Below are positions 33,775 to 45,498 of a DNA stretch of 64,000 nucleotides, one piece after another. Each line of letters begins with the position of its first letter. Within the stretch, counting starts at the first letter, position 1. Under the pieces are notes generated by a model that saw nothing but the letters and a program-made list of their open reading frames with translations, was not told where the DNA came from and did not search any database. Position numbers and translations under genes: made by a program. The stretch lies in assembly GCA_964351495.1 (NCBI GenBank), contig CAYGOC010000005.1, forward strand, positions 16,407-80,406. The letters are read 5' to 3'. This DNA comes from an uncultured bacterium (GTDB lineage: Bacteria; Chlamydiota; Chlamydiia; Chlamydiales; SM23-39).

Positions 33775-35288
33775 AAACATACGAAGAGATTTTTTCTCTT
33801 CTTCTATCTTATAAACAGGAAAAGAAAAAGGTTGTTCAGTGTCACGGTGTATTTGATCTTTTGCATCCGGGACATATTCGGCATCTTCGGGAAGCTAAAA
33901 AACAAGGGGATGTTTTAATTGTTACCCTCACTCCGGATCGATTTGTGAATAAGGGGCCGGGTAGGCCTGTTTTCCATCAAGAGCTTCGGATGGAATCGAT
34001 AGCTGCGTTAGATTGTGTAGATTTTGTAGTGTTAAATGACTCTCCTGATGCGGTCTCTTCCATATCTCGGATAAAGCCTGATATTTATGTAAAGGGCGTT
34101 GAATATAAAGAAGAAGAAAAGGATGTAACCCAAAAAATTACAGAAGAGAGAAGATCGGTAGAGGCTCATAAGGGAACTATTTATTTTACAGATGACATTG
34201 TTTTTAGTTCTTCTTCTTTATTGAACCAATTTTTTGATCCTATGCCTAAGGGAGTGCAAAAGTTTTTACGCACAATTAAGGGGAAATACACTTTAGGGCA
34301 GCTCATAGAGAAAGTAGAGGCTTTTTCTGAGATAAAAGTACTCGTTGTGGGAGATGCTATTTTAGATGTTTATCAATATGTAGATCCTTTAGGGCAGGCT
34401 GGTAAAGGGATTCACATGGTAGCTTCTTGTAGAGAAAAAGAGCAGTTTTTAGGGGGATCTCTTATTTTAGCAAATCATCTAGCCGAGTTTACTCCTAACG
34501 TGGATTTAGTTACCGGTCTTGGTTTCTCTTGTCCCTACGAATCTTGGATAAGGGAAAAATTAAATCCAAAAGTAAAATCTCACTTTTTATCGACAACGCA
34601 AAAAGAGACCCTTATTAAAAAGCGATATGTCTTAAAAGAGGGAGCTACTCTTTCTAAGCTTTTTGAGACCTATTCTTGTAATGCGGAACTTTTAGAAAAA
34701 GAAAAAAGAGAAAATTTAGAAGATCTTTTGACGTCTCTTTCAGAAAAGGCAGACTTAGTGCTTGTTTGTGATTTTGGAAATGGGTTTTTAAGCCCCTCTG
34801 TCGCAGAAAAAATTAGCAAACTCCCCTCTTTTTTAGCGATTAACACACAGATTAACTCGGGGAACAGAGGTCTTCATGCTATTTCTAGGTATGAAAGGGC
34901 AAACTTCATCTCTTTAAACGAACCGGAGGCTAGACTTGCTTTTCATGATCGCTATAGTCCCCTTGATTTTTTAATAGAAGATATTCTTTCTAAGATGCAG
35001 GCAAATTATATTGCTATTACACGGGGTGTACAAGGGGTTATTTGTAAAAGTGCAAACAGTGCAAATGGGCAAGAGATTCCCGCTTTAAATGATAGAGCGG
35101 TAGATAGAATAGGAGCGGGCGATAGTTTTTTTGCTCTTTCTTCTTTAGCTGCTTTCAAAAATCTTCCTGTTGAGCTAGTGGGTTTTTTTGGAGCTATTGC
35201 TGCTGCTTTAGATGTTCAAATTGTAGGTAATAGAGATCCTGTTCGTAAGTCACAATTTTTAAAGTATCTGACAAGGCTTTTAAAGTGA
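33759..35288 (+). CDS. bifunctional nucleotidyltransferase (N-terminal) + PfkB sugar kinase (C-terminal), i.e. HldE-like with swapped domain order
   Basis: The N-domain reads CHGVFDLLHPGHIRHLREAKKQGDVLIVTLTPD...PDIYVKGVEY (cytidylyltransferase-fold HxGH). The C-domain reads VLVVGDAILDVYQY...GGSLILANHL...DRIGAGDSFFA (PfkB signature). Confidence 0.8.
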   Translation: MSTKIKTYEEIFSLLLSYKQEKKKVVQCHGVFDLLHPGHIRHLREAKKQGDVLIVTLTPDRFVNKGPGRPVFHQELRMESIAALDCVDFVVLNDSPDAVSSISRIKPDIYVKGVEYKEEEKDVTQKITEERRSVEAHKGTIYFTDDIVFSSSSLLNQFFDPMPKGVQKFLRTIKGKYTLGQLIEKVEAFSEIKVLVVGDAILDVYQYVDPLGQAGKGIHMVASCREKEQFLGGSLILANHLAEFTPNVDLVTGLGFSCPYESWIREKLNPKVKSHFLSTTQKETLIKKRYVLKEGATLSKLFETYSCNAELLEKEKRENLEDLLTSLSEKADLVLVCDFGNGFLSPSVAEKISKLPSFLAINTQINSGNRGLHAISRYERANFISLNEPEARLAFHDRYSPLDFLIEDILSKMQANYIAITRGVQGVICKSANSANGQEIPALNDRAVDRIGAGDSFFALSSLAAFKNLPVELVGFFGAIAAALDVQIVGNRDPVRKSQFLKYLTRLLK

Positions 35289-36250
35289 AAAAAATAGAAG
35301 ATGAGAAAGCTTTAGAGCTTTTTTATGCTGTTCTGAAAATCCGCCTGGTGGAAGAGGCTATAATCAGCCATTATCCAAAGCAAAATATGAGATGCCCTGT
35401 TCACTTAAGTATAGGGCAAGAGGCGGTAGCTGTAGGGGTTTGTAAAGCTGCTTTACATACTGATTATGTGTTAGGTAATCATAGGTCTCATGCTCATTAC
35501 TTGGCAAAGGGAGGAGATCTTTTTTCTATGATAGCGGAGATTCATGGAAAAAAAACGGGATGCTGCTCGGGTAGAGGAGGGTCGATGCACTTGATCGATT
35601 TAGAGGCTAACTTTTTGGCTTCCACTCCTATTGTAGGAGGTACAATACCCTTGGCAGTAGGAGTTGCTTTTTCGCAAAAATTGCGAAAAAAAGAGGGAGC
35701 GACACTGGTGTTTTTTGGAGAAGGGGCTACAGAAGAGGGAGTGTTTTCTGAGTCTTTAAATTTTGCTTCTTTGCAAGATCTTCCTATTCTTTTTATTTGT
35801 GAGAACAATTTTTATTCTGTTTATTCCCCTTTATCGGTTAGGCAGTCTCCTACAAGATCGAGGATAAAAATAGCAGAGGCGCATGGAATCAAGACTTTTT
35901 TTTCTGATGAGGGAAATGAGGTAGAAGAGGTTTTTTCTCTTGCAAAGGAGGCTTTTTCTTTTTTACGAAAAGAGAAAAAGCCCGTTTATATAGAATTTAC
36001 TACCTATAGAGTGAAAGAGCATTGCGGCATGTATGAAGATGATCATTTAGGGTATAGGCCAGAAGAAGAGGTAGCGTTTTTTAAGCAAAGATGTCCTTTA
36101 AAAAAACAGGAAATAAGGCTGAAAGAAAGAGGTATATGGGACGAAAAGTCTTTTTTAGAAGAGAAGAAAAAAATAGAAGAGGAGATCGAGAAGGCTTTTG
36201 TAGAAGCAGAAAAAGCCCCTTATCCTTCTTTTGAAGAGGTGCTCTTATGA
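35285..36250 (+). CDS. ThDP-dependent 2-oxoacid dehydrogenase E1 component, alpha subunit-like
   Basis: ThDP-binding motif GEGATEEGVFSESLNFASLQDLPILFICENN. GTG start overlaps the upstream stop (GTGA). Confidence 0.8.
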   Translation: MKKIEDEKALELFYAVLKIRLVEEAIISHYPKQNMRCPVHLSIGQEAVAVGVCKAALHTDYVLGNHRSHAHYLAKGGDLFSMIAEIHGKKTGCCSGRGGSMHLIDLEANFLASTPIVGGTIPLAVGVAFSQKLRKKEGATLVFFGEGATEEGVFSESLNFASLQDLPILFICENNFYSVYSPLSVRQSPTRSRIKIAEAHGIKTFFSDEGNEVEEVFSLAKEAFSFLRKEKKPVYIEFTTYRVKEHCGMYEDDHLGYRPEEEVAFFKQRCPLKKQEIRLKERGIWDEKSFLEEKKKIEEEIEKAFVEAEKAPYPSFEEVLL

Positions 36251-43729: not shown

Positions 43730-45498
43730 TCAAAGTAACAGATTATATTGCCACAGTTTTAAAACAAAAAGGGATTACTACCGTTTTTGGAGTGACGGGA
43801 GGCGCTGTAGTTCATTTGTTTGACTCAGCTCAAAAAATGGGTTTGGAGTGTATATTTACTCACCATGAACAGTCTGCGGCTTTTGCGGCAGGAGCTTTTT
43901 CAAGGATAAAAGGATTGGGAACTTTATTTTGTACTACAGGACCTGGAGGGACCAATACTCTTACGGGAATAGCTGCTGCTTGGCTTGACTCTGTTCCTTT
44001 AATTTGTATAGGAGGACAAGTAAGGCTCTCTCACATAAAACCTCCTAAGGTTCGTCAGGTGGGGGCTCAAGAGCTAGATATAGTTTCTTTAATGAAGCCC
44101 ATTACCAAGCTGGCCCTTACTTTAGAGAATATAGATGATTTACCGGAAACTTTAGAAAGATGTATTGAAATAGCCAAAAGAGGAAGGCCCGGTCCCATTT
44201 ACCTTGAGATTCCTCTTGATTTACAGTGGCAAACTAGCTCTTTTGACCTTCCTTTCCTTAAAAAGGAGCCTGTAAAGTTTCCTTTGGATCAGGAAAAAAT
44301 AAAAGAGATATGCGATGGGTTAAATAAAGCGAAAAAACCCCTTTTGCTGATAGGTCATGGAGTGAGGTTAGCTGAAGGGGAAGAGCTCCTAAAGAGCTTT
44401 TTACAAAAAACAAAAATGCCTCACGTAGCAACTTGGAATGCTATAGATATAGTTTCGGGAGAGTCCTCTTTGTATTTAGGATCGCCTGGAATGTTTGGTA
44501 CCAGAGAGGCTAACTTAGCGGTTCAAGCCTGTGATTTCCTTCTTTGTTTAGGGGCTCACTTGCCTATTGCGGTTACTACAGGATTAGTGGATAAATTTGC
44601 CAATAAAGCCAGAGTAGCTCTTGTAAATATTGATTTAGCAGAAATAGAAAACCAAAGGATAAAGATTGACTATGGTTTACAAGCAGATGTTACCCTTTTT
44701 TTAAAGGAGATCCTTTCTTTGGTAGCTCCTTTAAATATTTTCTCTTGGCAACAAGCTTGTTCTAAAATTCGCAGGCTTTTTCTCTCTAGCCAAAAACCCC
44801 TTATTCAAAAAAGCCTTGGGGAAGAAGTTATCGATCCTTATGAATCGATAAGGATCATAAACCGCTTTTTAGGAGAAGAGGGGGTTGTTGTAGTGGATGG
44901 AGGGGGTACAGTAGTGCAAATCGCCTTACAAACTCTTTTTGCCAAAGCCAAGCAAAGGATTCTTATTGATGCGGGGCTTTGTTCTATGGGATCGGGATTA
45001 CCTCAAGTTCTTGGCGCCTGCATGGCAAGGCCTAAGGCTGAAGTAGTTTGTTTAGTGGGAGATGGAAGTTTTATGTTTAATGTACAAGAGCTGCAGACTA
45101 TTTTTGAGCATAAAATGAATGTGTCAATATTTGTTTTTAATAATGGGGGATATCTTTCTATAAGAAATACCCAAAAAGGATTTTTAGAGGGAAATTACCT
45201 TGGTTCTAGTGAGGAAGGGGGAATTTCTGTGGCTAAGATAGAGGCTCTAGCTAAGGCTTTTTGTTTGCCTTATTTTCGTGTGAATAAGGAGAAAGAACTG
45301 CAAGAACTCCTTTTTTCAAACCAAGAAAAAAAAGGCCCTAAAGTCTATGAGTTAGTCATTTCTAAAGAGCAAGAGGTTTATCCTAGGATAGGTTTTTCTA
45401 AAAACAAAGAGGGAAGAGCCTTCCAAAATCCTATTGATAAAATGGATCCTCCGATTTTTGAAGAGGAGAGTGCTTTATTTTTAACCGAATTTTTTTAA
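43726..45498 (+). CDS. ThDP-dependent enzyme of the acetolactate-synthase large-subunit family (YerE-like candidate)
   Basis: HEQSAAFAAGAFSRI, TTGPGGTNTLTGIAAAWLDSVPLICIGGQV and GDGSFMFNVQELQTIFEHKMNVSIFVFNNGGY. I chose the TTG at 43726, which overlaps the SDR stop (TTGA). The track ORF's first 24 codons lie inside the SDR gene. Confidence 0.75.
   Translation: MIKVTDYIATVLKQKGITTVFGVTGGAVVHLFDSAQKMGLECIFTHHEQSAAFAAGAFSRIKGLGTLFCTTGPGGTNTLTGIAAAWLDSVPLICIGGQVRLSHIKPPKVRQVGAQELDIVSLMKPITKLALTLENIDDLPETLERCIEIAKRGRPGPIYLEIPLDLQWQTSSFDLPFLKKEPVKFPLDQEKIKEICDGLNKAKKPLLLIGHGVRLAEGEELLKSFLQKTKMPHVATWNAIDIVSGESSLYLGSPGMFGTREANLAVQACDFLLCLGAHLPIAVTTGLVDKFANKARVALVNIDLAEIENQRIKIDYGLQADVTLFLKEILSLVAPLNIFSWQQACSKIRRLFLSSQKPLIQKSLGEEVIDPYESIRIINRFLGEEGVVVVDGGGTVVQIALQTLFAKAKQRILIDAGLCSMGSGLPQVLGACMARPKAEVVCLVGDGSFMFNVQELQTIFEHKMNVSIFVFNNGGYLSIRNTQKGFLEGNYLGSSEEGGISVAKIEALAKAFCLPYFRVNKEKELQELLFSNQEKKGPKVYELVISKEQEVYPRIGFSKNKEGRAFQNPIDKMDPPIFEEESALFLTEFF

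Follow-up and report, generated by a model that had tools for sequence, protein, structure and literature searches.

A block of ten genes (positions 35285-45498) in a 64,000-nucleotide stretch of DNA from an uncultured member of the Chlamydiales (lineage SM23-39; contig CAYGOC010000005.1; the whole stretch is referred to below as the window) probably directs the formation of an acyl-branched surface sugar that, by analogy with characterized clusters, would resemble erwiniose or caryophyllose and carry a carbon side chain longer than C2. The ten open reading frames (ORFs) all lie on the + strand where a first-pass annotation had placed them, and Pfam and NCBIfam bore out the families it had named: a 2-oxoacid dehydrogenase E1 alpha/beta pair, an RmlB-like short-chain dehydrogenase/reductase (SDR), a small S-adenosylmethionine (SAM) methyltransferase, a C-methyltransferase-like protein, a DmpF-type dehydrogenase, a DmpG-type aldolase, an HpaI-type aldolase, a FabG-like SDR and a thiamine diphosphate (ThDP) enzyme of the acetolactate synthase (ALS) superfamily. 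The ORFs overlap or are separated by 3-11 nt, with the exception of one 95-nt gap, and the start of the ThDP gene overlaps the stop of the FabG-like SDR gene in the tetranucleotide TTGA (43726-43729). These overlaps and short spacers, together with the conservation of the block alongside nucleotide-sugar genes in a glycan locus, uphold the earlier proposal of a coupled block tied to sugar genes. The block forms the distal end of a same-strand run that also comprises genes for a GT17 glycosyltransferase, two extended SDRs, a GmhA-like SIS isomerase and an HldE-like protein, and it is followed on its 3' side by a convergent GT2 glycosyltransferase gene and then by the gene of a Zn-dependent alcohol dehydrogenase (Zn-ADH). 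Further glycan genes of the window encode a GT9 and two GT4 glycosyltransferases, an O-antigen-ligase-family protein, an MsbA-like ABC transporter and a second sugar pathway. The block lies within a glycan locus, most likely as the sugar-tailoring part of a lipopolysaccharide (LPS)/O-antigen locus of an environmental chlamydia.

Similarity to Known Acyl-Branched Sugar Pathways

A unifying scheme for acyl-branched sugars was put forward by Steitz et al. (2022; PMC9306805), who reasoned that gene clusters allow their prediction. In Pectobacterium atrosepticum, ErwJ (BphJ/DmpF-like) and ErwI (BphI/DmpG-like) supply 4-hydroxy-2-oxopentanoate, which the YerE-like ThDP enzyme ErwE uses as donor with a preference for the 4R isomer and with rejection of pyruvate, the acceptor being CDP-4-keto-3,6-dideoxyglucose; the product is reduced by ErwF to give erwiniose (PMC9306805). 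For caryophyllose, a pairing of the HpcH/HpaI-family aldolase MMAR_2331 with the ThDP enzyme MMAR_2332 has been proposed, ErwE, MyGE and MMAR_2332 take C4-C8 gamma-hydroxy keto acids, and a cluster of Rhodopseudomonas palustris adds a SAM methyltransferase (PMC9306805). The first-pass annotation had envisaged an aldol-built, pyruvate- or acetaldehyde-derived unit, possibly longer than C2, that is grafted onto a keto-sugar by a ThDP enzyme, and this idea appears to match the reactions shown for ErwJ/ErwI/ErwE/ErwF as well as those proposed for MMAR_2331/MMAR_2332 (PMC9306805). Its accompanying statement that the pathway is undescribed, and that no nucleotide-sugar pathway recruits enzymes of the DmpF/DmpG and HpaI types, is out of date because the erwiniose and caryophyllose clusters use those enzyme types, so that both have published precedents (PMC9306805).

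As in the erwiniose cluster of P. atrosepticum SCRI1043, whose ErwE/F/J/I proteins bear the accessions WP_011093010-013, a DmpF/DmpG-type pair adjoins a YerE-like ThDP enzyme and a reductase within an LPS sugar cluster. However, when the two sets are compared by family rather than by sequence, the window adds an HpaI-type aldolase, the E1 alpha/beta pair, two methyltransferases and the Zn-ADH, and its acceptor genes are HldE/GmhA-like genes and an atypical RmlB-like SDR gene instead of ddh genes. The clusters for caryophyllose (Mycobacterium marinum MMAR_2331/2332), gastriose (M. gastri MygI/MyGE/MygF) and a C6-branched sugar (R. palustris CGA009) share with the window an HpcH/HpaI aldolase, a YerE-like ThDP enzyme and a reductase, and they produce side chains longer than C2; the SAM methyltransferase of R. 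palustris also has counterparts here. In contrast to the window, neither DmpFG nor an E1 pair has been reported for these clusters, and their acceptors are 3,6-dideoxyhexoses. The YerE/YerF pair of yersiniose A formation in Yersinia pseudotuberculosis contains the same type of ThDP enzyme, but YerE takes pyruvate and forms a C2 branch only. Lacking ddh-type acceptor genes and encoding several additional enzymes, the block is not a strict member of the erwiniose cluster type, yet it appears to work like the Erw and caryophyllose systems.

In the corresponding scheme for the window, the DmpF-like enzyme would convert acetyl-CoA to acetaldehyde, which the DmpG-like aldolase would join with pyruvate to form 4-hydroxy-2-oxopentanoate, probably as the 4R isomer. 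Decarboxylation of this gamma-hydroxy-alpha-keto acid, or of a longer analogue formed with the help of the HpaI-like aldolase, would fall to the YerE/ErwE-like enzyme, which would then attach the resulting acyl-anion equivalent to a nucleotide-activated sugar at its keto group. Reduction of the new side-chain ketone would be carried out by the FabG-like SDR, methylation of the product by the small methyltransferase and the TylC3-like C-methyltransferase, and its transfer to the glycan by the convergent GT2 glycosyltransferase, while the GmhA-like isomerase, the HldE-like kinase/nucleotidyltransferase, the two extended SDRs and the RmlB-like SDR would make the acceptor.

The Predicted ThDP Carboligase and the Aldolases

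The ThDP enzyme (43726-45498, + strand, TTG start) shows the three-domain TPP_enzyme N/M/C architecture in Pfam, with the catalytic Glu in the motif HHEQSAAF and the ThDP motif as VGDGSF...FNNGGY. The top solved structures among its matches are JanthE (8rph, 309 bits), which accepts 4-hydroxy-2-oxovalerate, and PpYerE (5ahk, 261 bits), compared with 244 bits for acetohydroxyacid synthase (AHAS) I of Escherichia coli (6lpi), and its scores on the NCBIfam AHAS models (338-365 bits) stay below the cutoffs of 538-738. By these matches it qualifies as a YerE-like enzyme and a predicted carboligase of the YerE/ErwE type. The FabG-like classical SDR encoded directly upstream (42932-43729, +; adh_short, E 3e-42) is 56-84% identical across the related loci of other genomes (numbered L001 onwards), in each of which it adjoins the ThDP gene, and is presumed to be the ErwF/YerF-equivalent ketoreductase of the acyl branch. 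When metagenomes were scanned with an alignment of the YerE-like enzymes, 80 loci were found, and the partner genes were present only in the three closest (at least 37% identity); the other 77 (at most 36% identity) represent other ThDP subfamilies without the partners of the block. A tblastn search of plasmids yielded ordinary ilvB/ilvG genes only, at about 30% identity.

The acylating acetaldehyde dehydrogenase of the DmpF/BphJ/ErwJ type (40291-41160, +) exceeds the cutoff of TIGR03215 (322 bits versus 282) and has its catalytic Cys in VSCGGQ, and the 4-hydroxy-2-oxovalerate aldolase of the DmpG/BphI/ErwI type (41160-42182, +, with 41160 as the true start) exceeds that of TIGR03217 (335 bits versus 286). 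Alignment to DmpG (1nvm) demonstrated that the catalytic residues Arg17, Asp18, His21, His200 and His202 of the aldolase are intact, as is the Cys of the DmpF-like partner, and that the aldolase has His at the position of BphI-Leu87 and Phe at that of BphI-Tyr290, position 89 being occupied by Ile or Met among the DmpG-type enzymes compared. Every DmpG homologue from a glycan cluster that was examined has His (or Tyr/Phe) at position 87 and Phe at position 290, and all of the best 120 database homologues carry Phe290 together with His or Phe at position 87; P. atrosepticum was not among these best 120 matches of the protein search. Leu87 and Tyr290 are kept by four catabolic enzymes with crystal structures and by the DmpG of locus L057. 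In BphI, Tyr290 blocks the 4R substrate, and the replacements L87N/W together with Y290F invert the specificity to 4R (PMC3962088). Since the His87/Phe290 combination resembles the engineered 4R-specific BphI L87N/Y290F, the product of the DmpG-like enzyme is probably the 4R isomer of 4-hydroxy-2-oxopentanoate, and the signature fits a biosynthetic aldolase that would feed a 4R-selective carboligase. No description of the His87/Phe290 subfamily was found in the literature.

The same two enzymes could in principle be read as catabolic, with DmpF, DmpG, HpaI and the E1 pair serving aromatic meta-cleavage or acetoin breakdown and lying beside sugar genes by a mosaic accident. Indeed, the pair shares fold, catalytic residues, communication domain and equivalog scores with the meta-cleavage complexes DmpFG, BphIJ and MhpEF, and the NCBIfam cutoffs that both proteins pass were trained largely on catabolic enzymes. 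In contrast to these complexes, the window enzyme has His/Phe in place of the stereo-determining Leu87/Tyr290 pair and lacks catabolic neighbors, its biosynthetic direction being presumed: hydratase, dioxygenase, E2 and E3 genes were not found nearby, and the coding regions of the block overlap with sugar genes. Moreover, orthologous sets from at least six phyla, with shuffled gene order, always occur in glycan loci, and a check of the neighborhoods for acetoin or aromatic catabolism, which the first-pass annotation had named as a context that would speak against its proposal, uncovered none. Based on the glycan context and the DmpG signature the catabolic reading was rejected as extremely improbable.

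Between the DmpG-like aldolase and the FabG-like SDR, a class II pyruvate aldolase of the HpcH/HpaI family is encoded (42160-42954, +; PF03328; TIGR02311 140 bits, below the cutoff of 369), in which the catalytic His, Arg, Glu and Asp residues are conserved. Close homologues of this protein are rare, and a scan of genomes with an alignment of seven HpaI sequences returned 80 loci that mostly contain unrelated HpaI homologues without partner genes, while at least 12 loci combine an HpaI-like gene with DmpFG and a YerE-like gene. By comparison with the known systems, the HpaI-like aldolase might form a longer donor as proposed for MMAR_2331, might use the C5 keto acid as nucleophile, or might act on a sugar-borne carbonyl.

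Conservation of the Block in Other Genomes

Co-occurrence of the genes for the C-methyltransferase-like protein, DmpF, DmpG, HpaI, the SDR and the YerE-like enzyme was found in L001, L002, L004 (Omnitrophota), L006 (Planctomycetia), L083, L087 and L088, and the same gene set was present in L086, in which HpaI was not detected. An extended set, which further includes the HldE-like protein, the SIS isomerase, the first of the two upstream extended SDRs (SDRa), the E1 pair, the RmlB-like SDR, the small methyltransferase and the alcohol dehydrogenase, occurs in shuffled order in the omnitrophote L004, the planctomycete L006 and the metagenomic loci L086 and L087. Because the same set recurs in shuffled order in other phyla, the grouping of the ten genes is not due to chance. 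Look-ups of window proteins by exact sequence yielded no recorded entry; one relative, whose block genes are 61-84% identical to those of the window, is located on a contig of 1.42 Mb. More broadly, a BphJ/BphI-type pair is adjacent to a ThDP enzyme and a reductase in at least 10 related loci, and DmpFG, HpaI and a YerE-like enzyme are encoded among glycan genes in Spirochaetota, Duganella, Elusimicrobia, Omnitrophota and an alphaproteobacterial metagenome-assembled genome. The contexts of the related loci are all of the glycan type, with genes for GT2, GT4, GT9, Wzy_C, an ABC transporter, YfhO, NeuB or DegT.

This co-conservation also bears on the possibility that the product of the block is a small molecule other than a glycan, for example a secondary metabolite or a cofactor-like compound, formed from pyruvate-derived units, and that the nucleotide-sugar genes are unrelated neighbors. 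ThDP carboligases and aldolases are also known from natural-product clusters; however, the HldE-like, SIS and nucleoside diphosphate (NDP)-sugar SDR genes are kept together with the block across distant phyla, the GT2 gene is a constant neighbor, and the locus contains an O-antigen-ligase-family gene, GT4, GT9 and GT17 genes and an ABC exporter. A non-glycan product is thus considered very unlikely.

At the simple end of the range, the cultured Paenibacillus dendritiformis (CP124222.1) possesses a minimal Erw-type set consisting of DegT, an NTP-transferase, a dehydratase, a ThDP enzyme, DmpF, a His87/Phe290 DmpG, a reductase and a GT2. The type with DmpFG and HpaI is represented among cultured organisms by Duganella rhizosphaerae R64. 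A different variant was found in the archaeon Methanospirillum sp. (L085; GCA_053578395.1, JBHKXI010000004.1, 1-15700), which encodes E1 beta, an RmlB-like SDR, a C-methyltransferase, an SDR, a YerE-like enzyme, two further methyltransferases and an ADH. In place of DmpFG and HpaI this locus has a sugar-acid dehydratase (GD_AH) of the altronate/galactarate-dehydratase family and a mannitol-dehydrogenase-family protein, which by their family membership suggest the supply of a different 2-keto-3-deoxy acid donor. Genes for an inositol-phosphatase-family protein, a split transketolase, a transaldolase/FSA, a PfkB kinase and a HAD phosphatase are also present, and the transketolase, transaldolase, PfkB and HAD genes would fit a local supply of sedoheptulose-7-phosphate as the origin of the acceptor. 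As judged by gene content, the Erw-type logic is widespread, reaches the archaea and occurs in modular variants, namely with DmpFG alone, with DmpFG and HpaI, in the extended form with E1, and in the Methanospirillum form with a sugar-acid dehydratase.

The 95-nt gap within the block (38979-39073), its only sizeable spacer, is possibly a sub-operon boundary. L001 retains a spacer of comparable length (102 nt), and the six genes downstream of it form one unit in L002 and L083. A weak hairpin with a T-run (38972-38989) and a promoter-like site (39010-39039) are located at the gap, but the promoter scan did not rise above shuffled controls, and promoter and terminator scans gave weak candidates only.

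The E1 Pair as a Second Module

The E1 alpha gene (35285-36250, +) encodes a PF00676 E1_dh protein (E 8e-59) with the ThDP motif GEG...ENN, whose best PDB matches are the E1 alpha subunits of pyruvate and branched-chain keto acid dehydrogenases, and the E1 beta gene (36247-37311, +) encodes a protein with Transket_pyr and Transketolase_C domains that scores 278 bits on PRK09212, below the cutoff of 321. Because E2 and E3 genes were not found near the block in the Pfam and NCBIfam assignments of the block and its flanking genes, the pair is stand-alone, as the first-pass annotation had supposed. In a separate observation, the terminator scan picked up an inverted repeat with a 15-bp stem (GGCTTTTTCTTTTTT-ACG-AAAAGAGAAAAAGCC; 35950-35982) inside the E1 alpha coding region. 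E1 alpha/beta genes are present in five of the six related loci beyond the window in which this could be judged (L001, L004, L006, L086 and L087) and are absent only from L083. The Zn-ADH (46427-47497, +; ADH_N/ADH_zinc_N) is likewise co-conserved with the block and has homologues of 44-77% identity in L001, L004, L006, L084, L085 and L087.

According to a review published in 2025, YerE-like enzymes belong mainly to LPS pathways, while E1 alpha/beta pairs designated alpha-KADH2 occur with actinomycete antibiotics, where they use pyruvate as donor and form a C2 branch; these established C2-branching enzymes take keto-sugar analogues and accept pyruvate only (PMC12247030). The alpha-KADH2 pairs of avilamycin (AviB1/B2), aldgamycin (AlmDI/DII), kosinostatin, kibdelomycin (KbDH-alpha/beta) and paulomycin formation resemble the pair of the window in being a stand-alone E1 alpha and beta encoded next to NDP-sugar tailoring genes. 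Unlike these pairs, which act alone and derive from actinomycete antibiotic clusters, the pair of the window and of the other phyla is found in LPS-type loci and together with a YerE-like enzyme. By analogy, the E1 pair and the Zn-ADH would represent a second, usually co-present module, which would either introduce a C2 branch (acetyl, then hydroxyethyl) or carry out a decarboxylation that feeds the second aldolase.

The first of these roles leads to a scheme with two branchings or two products, in which the E1 pair adds C2 from pyruvate, followed by reduction by the Zn-ADH, while the YerE-like module adds the longer chain to a second carbonyl of the same sugar or to a separate pool of the same intermediate. 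In line with this scheme, alpha-KADH2 pairs are established enzymes for pyruvate-only C2 branching, and the 95-nt gap parts the E1-containing half of the block from the YerE-containing half, which occurs alone in L083. The E1 genes adjoin the RmlB-like SDR gene in the window, L001, L006 and L085, and because of this adjacency an action of E1 on the keto-sugar is favored over a role as donor-forming decarboxylase. Nevertheless, all characterized alpha-KADH2 enzymes stem from actinomycete antibiotic clusters and not from LPS loci, in L084 both the alcohol dehydrogenase and the small methyltransferase stand with the YerE-like gene although no E1 is visible, and the methyltransferase is fused to the YerE-like enzyme and not to E1. 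Furthermore, a single 4-ketone cannot take two additions, so that two branchings on one sugar would need a second ketone. A scheme of this kind, with two branchings or two products, is considered possible but rather doubtful.

The second role corresponds to an iterative aldol route: the C5 acid from DmpFG would be decarboxylated by E1 to 3-hydroxybutanal, which HpaI and pyruvate would extend to 4,6-dihydroxy-2-oxoheptanoate, so that the YerE-like enzyme would graft a C6 chain that the SDR and the ADH reduce and the methyltransferases methylate. Such a route would give each of the two aldolases and each of the two ThDP systems a place in a single linear sequence, and it would agree with the longer donors that HpcH/HpaI aldolases give in the caryophyllose scheme, with the C4-C8 acids accepted by ErwE, MyGE and MMAR_2332, with the position of E1 beta next to DmpF in L087 and with the presence of the E1 pair in five of six judgeable loci. 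E1 components are, on the other hand, normally inefficient at releasing free aldehydes, and Ile or Met at position 89 of DmpG gives no sign of a fit to longer aldehydes. Since DmpFG, HpaI and YerE-like genes also occur without an E1 within 10 kb (L083, L055, L065 and L167), an obligatory role of E1 as decarboxylase is argued against, and the iterative route as a whole is judged unlikely.

Origin of the Acceptor Sugar

The genes directly upstream of the block point to an unusual acceptor. SDRa (31207-32193, +), an extended SDR similar to GalE/HldD-type NDP-sugar epimerases and oxidoreductases and an upstream member of the operon, matches Pfam Epimerase (E 1e-41), with every NCBIfam match below cutoff, and has homologues in L004 (39%), L006 (51%) and L083 (63%). 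The second extended SDR, SDRb (32190-33188, +), is GalE/LegB/HldD-like according to Pfam and NCBIfam and has homologues in L001 (77%) and L083 (63%). A GmhA-like, SIS-domain sugar-phosphate isomerase gene (33133-33774, +; TIGR00441 gmhA 85 bits, cutoff 209), whose true start is probably at about 33181, is kept in L001, L006 and L083. The adjoining HldE-like bifunctional protein (33759-35288, +) combines an N-terminal CTP_transf_like nucleotidyltransferase with a C-terminal PfkB sugar kinase, a domain order that is reversed compared with HldE (kinase N-terminal, adenylyltransferase C-terminal); both domains are recognized, with 104 bits for rfaE_dom_II and 80 bits for rfaE_dom_I versus cutoffs of 181 and 345. 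From its domains it is presumed to activate the acceptor sugar, and its gene is present in all six judgeable related loci (L001, L004, L006, L083, L086 and L087); when every related locus with sufficient flanking sequence is counted, a homologue occurs in 7 of 7.

The RmlB-like extended SDR of the block (37323-38315, +) belongs to an atypical subfamily (TIGR01181 213 bits, below the cutoff of 365) and is 63-65% identical to its homologues from L083 and the methanogen L085 (63% for the latter). It retains YAASK but has S-P-E where RmlB has the catalytic T-D-E, so that the catalytic Asp is absent, and QSEVAPS in place of ESHVDRS. These replacements are a feature of the subfamily (window, L001, L004, L006, L083 and L085), in which S(S/T)PEVYG stands for STDEVYG and QSEVAPS for ESHVDRS; in L004 and L006 the Lys of YxxxK is in addition replaced by Arg. 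The enzyme is presumed to form the keto-sugar, and its subfamily may perform a chemistry other than 4,6-dehydration. The designation of this SDR as a 4,6-dehydratase type in the first-pass annotation is put in doubt by the S-P-E motif, nor is the 4-keto-6-deoxy sugar that it had assumed as acceptor established: the missing catalytic Asp, together with the HldE/GmhA-like activation genes, which suggest a heptose-type sugar, caused us to downgrade a strict 4-keto-6-deoxyhexose. Genes of the ddhA-D type, encoding CDP-glucose pyrophosphorylase, CDP-glucose 4,6-dehydratase, a DegT-family 3-dehydrase and a reductase, were not found in or adjoining the block, while ddh-type genes do occur in L055 and in the Paenibacillus locus L166. 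Because GmhA-like and HldE-like proteins, two extended SDRs and an atypical RmlB-like SDR are encoded upstream of the carboligase, the acceptor is probably derived from a heptose, rather than being the CDP-3,6-dideoxyhexose of the known pathways. In L091, L100, L127 and L129, remoter YerE-like genes (34-35% identity) adjoin homologues of the HldE-like, SDRa and SDRb genes without DmpFG, HpaI or E1, and the HldE-like route to the acceptor may therefore commonly be paired with YerE-like enzymes of several subfamilies.

Methyltransferases and the Associated Glycosyltransferase

The small class-I SAM methyltransferase (38319-38978, +; Pfam Methyltransf_11/25/31), another assignment of the first-pass annotation that stood, has homologues that adjoin the ThDP gene in L004, L006, L084 and L085. 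In L087 (4199-6772) and L088 (3846-6404), a YerE-like enzyme forms the N-terminal part of a fusion protein that also contains a homologue of this methyltransferase over its full length (37-42% identity), and the same fusion architecture is found in P0109 (855 aa). By gene adjacency and fusion, the small methyltransferase appears to be tied functionally to the YerE-like enzyme.

The C-methyltransferase-like protein (39074-40294, +) contains an N-terminal CxxC...CxxC zinc ribbon and a clear SAM domain, and its gene accompanies the YerE-like/SDR gene pair in every related locus. Its only PDB matches are the sugar 3-C-methyltransferases 4rv9 (TylC3-like), TcaB9 and KijD1 (E 3e-20 to 1e-14, residues 20-276), with which it shares the zinc-ribbon N-terminus and the SAM domain. 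However, the kinship is very distant (E 3e-20), the Methyltransf_13 match is weak (E 7e-4), and a C-terminal Methyltransf_14 domain was undetected by Pfam.

The GT2 glycosyltransferase (45431-46369, - strand; Pfam), which is encoded convergently with the block, is the candidate transferase for the product. Its homologues adjoin the block in L001 (56%), L083 (45%) and L084 (34%), a fragment is present in L002, and in L006 a GT2 and a YfhO gene are inserted inside the block.

Assessment and Implications

A number of observations weigh against the proposed erwiniose/caryophyllose-like product. A simple Erw-type route can do without HpaI and E1 alpha/beta, which are both outside the published scheme, and L083 has the six-gene core with the HldE-like, SIS and SDR genes but lacks the E1 pair, the small methyltransferase and the ADH. 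The known pathways use CDP-4-keto-3,6-dideoxyglucose, while the ddh-type genes for it are absent here, no GmhB-type phosphatase was found in the window, and the origin of the acceptor ketone is called into question by an RmlB-like SDR that lacks the catalytic Asp and, in L004 and L006, also the Lys of YxxxK. With regard to the carboligase, the margin between PpYerE (261 bits) and AHAS I of E. coli (244 bits) is small, and kinship to ErwE/F/I/J, MMAR_2331/2332, YerE/F and AviB1/B2 is deduced solely via JanthE, PpYerE and family membership.

A bolder, tentative version of the proposal, which we regard as conceivable rather than expected, is that two ThDP carboligation systems and two pyruvate aldolases act on one heptose-derived NDP-sugar. 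The result would be a methylated higher-carbon sugar of a new kind, doubly C-C-branched or with a C6 chain built by aldol reactions. Environmental Chlamydiota would carry it on their LPS, and horizontal transfer would have brought it to the cell surfaces of Omnitrophota, Planctomycetota and a methanogen. Relative to the literature, the new aspect is the presence of both aldolase types, the E1 pair, two methyltransferases, the Zn-ADH and HldE/GmhA-like activation in one conserved block. In the literature, no account was found of a sugar cluster that unites an E1 pair with both types of aldolase, of a fusion of YerE with a methyltransferase, of such a pathway in Chlamydiota or archaea, or of any branched sugar in Chlamydiae.

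Among surface components, branched higher-carbon sugars such as yersiniose, erwiniose and caryophyllose are rare and of immunological relevance, and their chemical detection is difficult. The block predicts a branched, probably heptose-based and multiply modified sugar for the Chlamydiota, a lineage whose LPS is thought to be simple. In addition, His87/Phe290 offers a simple sequence marker that would part biosynthetic DmpG-type aldolases from catabolic ones, and ThDP carboligases that would take functionalized donors, candidate 4R-selective class II aldolases and a carboligase-methyltransferase fusion are of biocatalytic interest.

Other Features of the Window

A second, divergently arranged sugar pathway is located at 50215-57345. 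It comprises an extended SDR (50215-51150, -), an HddC-like nucleotidyltransferase (51135-51848, -), an HddA-like GHMP kinase (51858-52859, -), a canonical TylC3-type C-methyltransferase (52932-54164) whose Methyltransf_13/14 domains are complete, an Fcl-like reductase (54161-55084), a DAO-family FAD oxidoreductase (55038-56309) and a strong match to GDP-mannose 4,6-dehydratase (56302-57345, -). From its gene content it looks like a route to a GDP-linked 3-C-methyl-6-deoxy sugar, reminiscent of what has been proposed for virenose formation in Coxiella. The interval that separates the two sugar pathways (47688-50218, -) holds genes for an MFS transporter, a uracil-DNA-glycosylase-superfamily protein and two ORFs without a Pfam match (48439-49038, +; 48974-49492, -), an arrangement that is kept in L001.

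Upstream of the ten-gene block, two GT17-family glycosyltransferase genes form a divergent pair (29253-30077, -; 30251-31156, +), and a GT17 gene is also found near the block in L002; this family is known chiefly through eukaryotic GnT-III. Upstream of the glycan locus, the window encodes a YjbH-family exopolysaccharide-associated outer-membrane protein (11637-13781, +; PF06082, E 5e-144) and a Legionella_OMP-family major outer membrane protein (18982-20091, +). Genes at 7884-10031 (-), 14919-16553 (+), 16559-18919 (+) and 63097-63978 (-), which place the window in the Chlamydiota, include those for a GreA of 715 aa that is much extended at its N-terminus, a ThyX of double length and tandem Tyr/Trp permeases. 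The C-terminal zinc ribbons of topoisomerase I are fused to a SWIB domain in an ORF of 293 aa, which may be split or run past the end of the window. We take the 715-aa GreA, the TopA-SWIB fusion, the double-length ThyX and the paired Tyr/Trp permeases to be chlamydial hallmarks.

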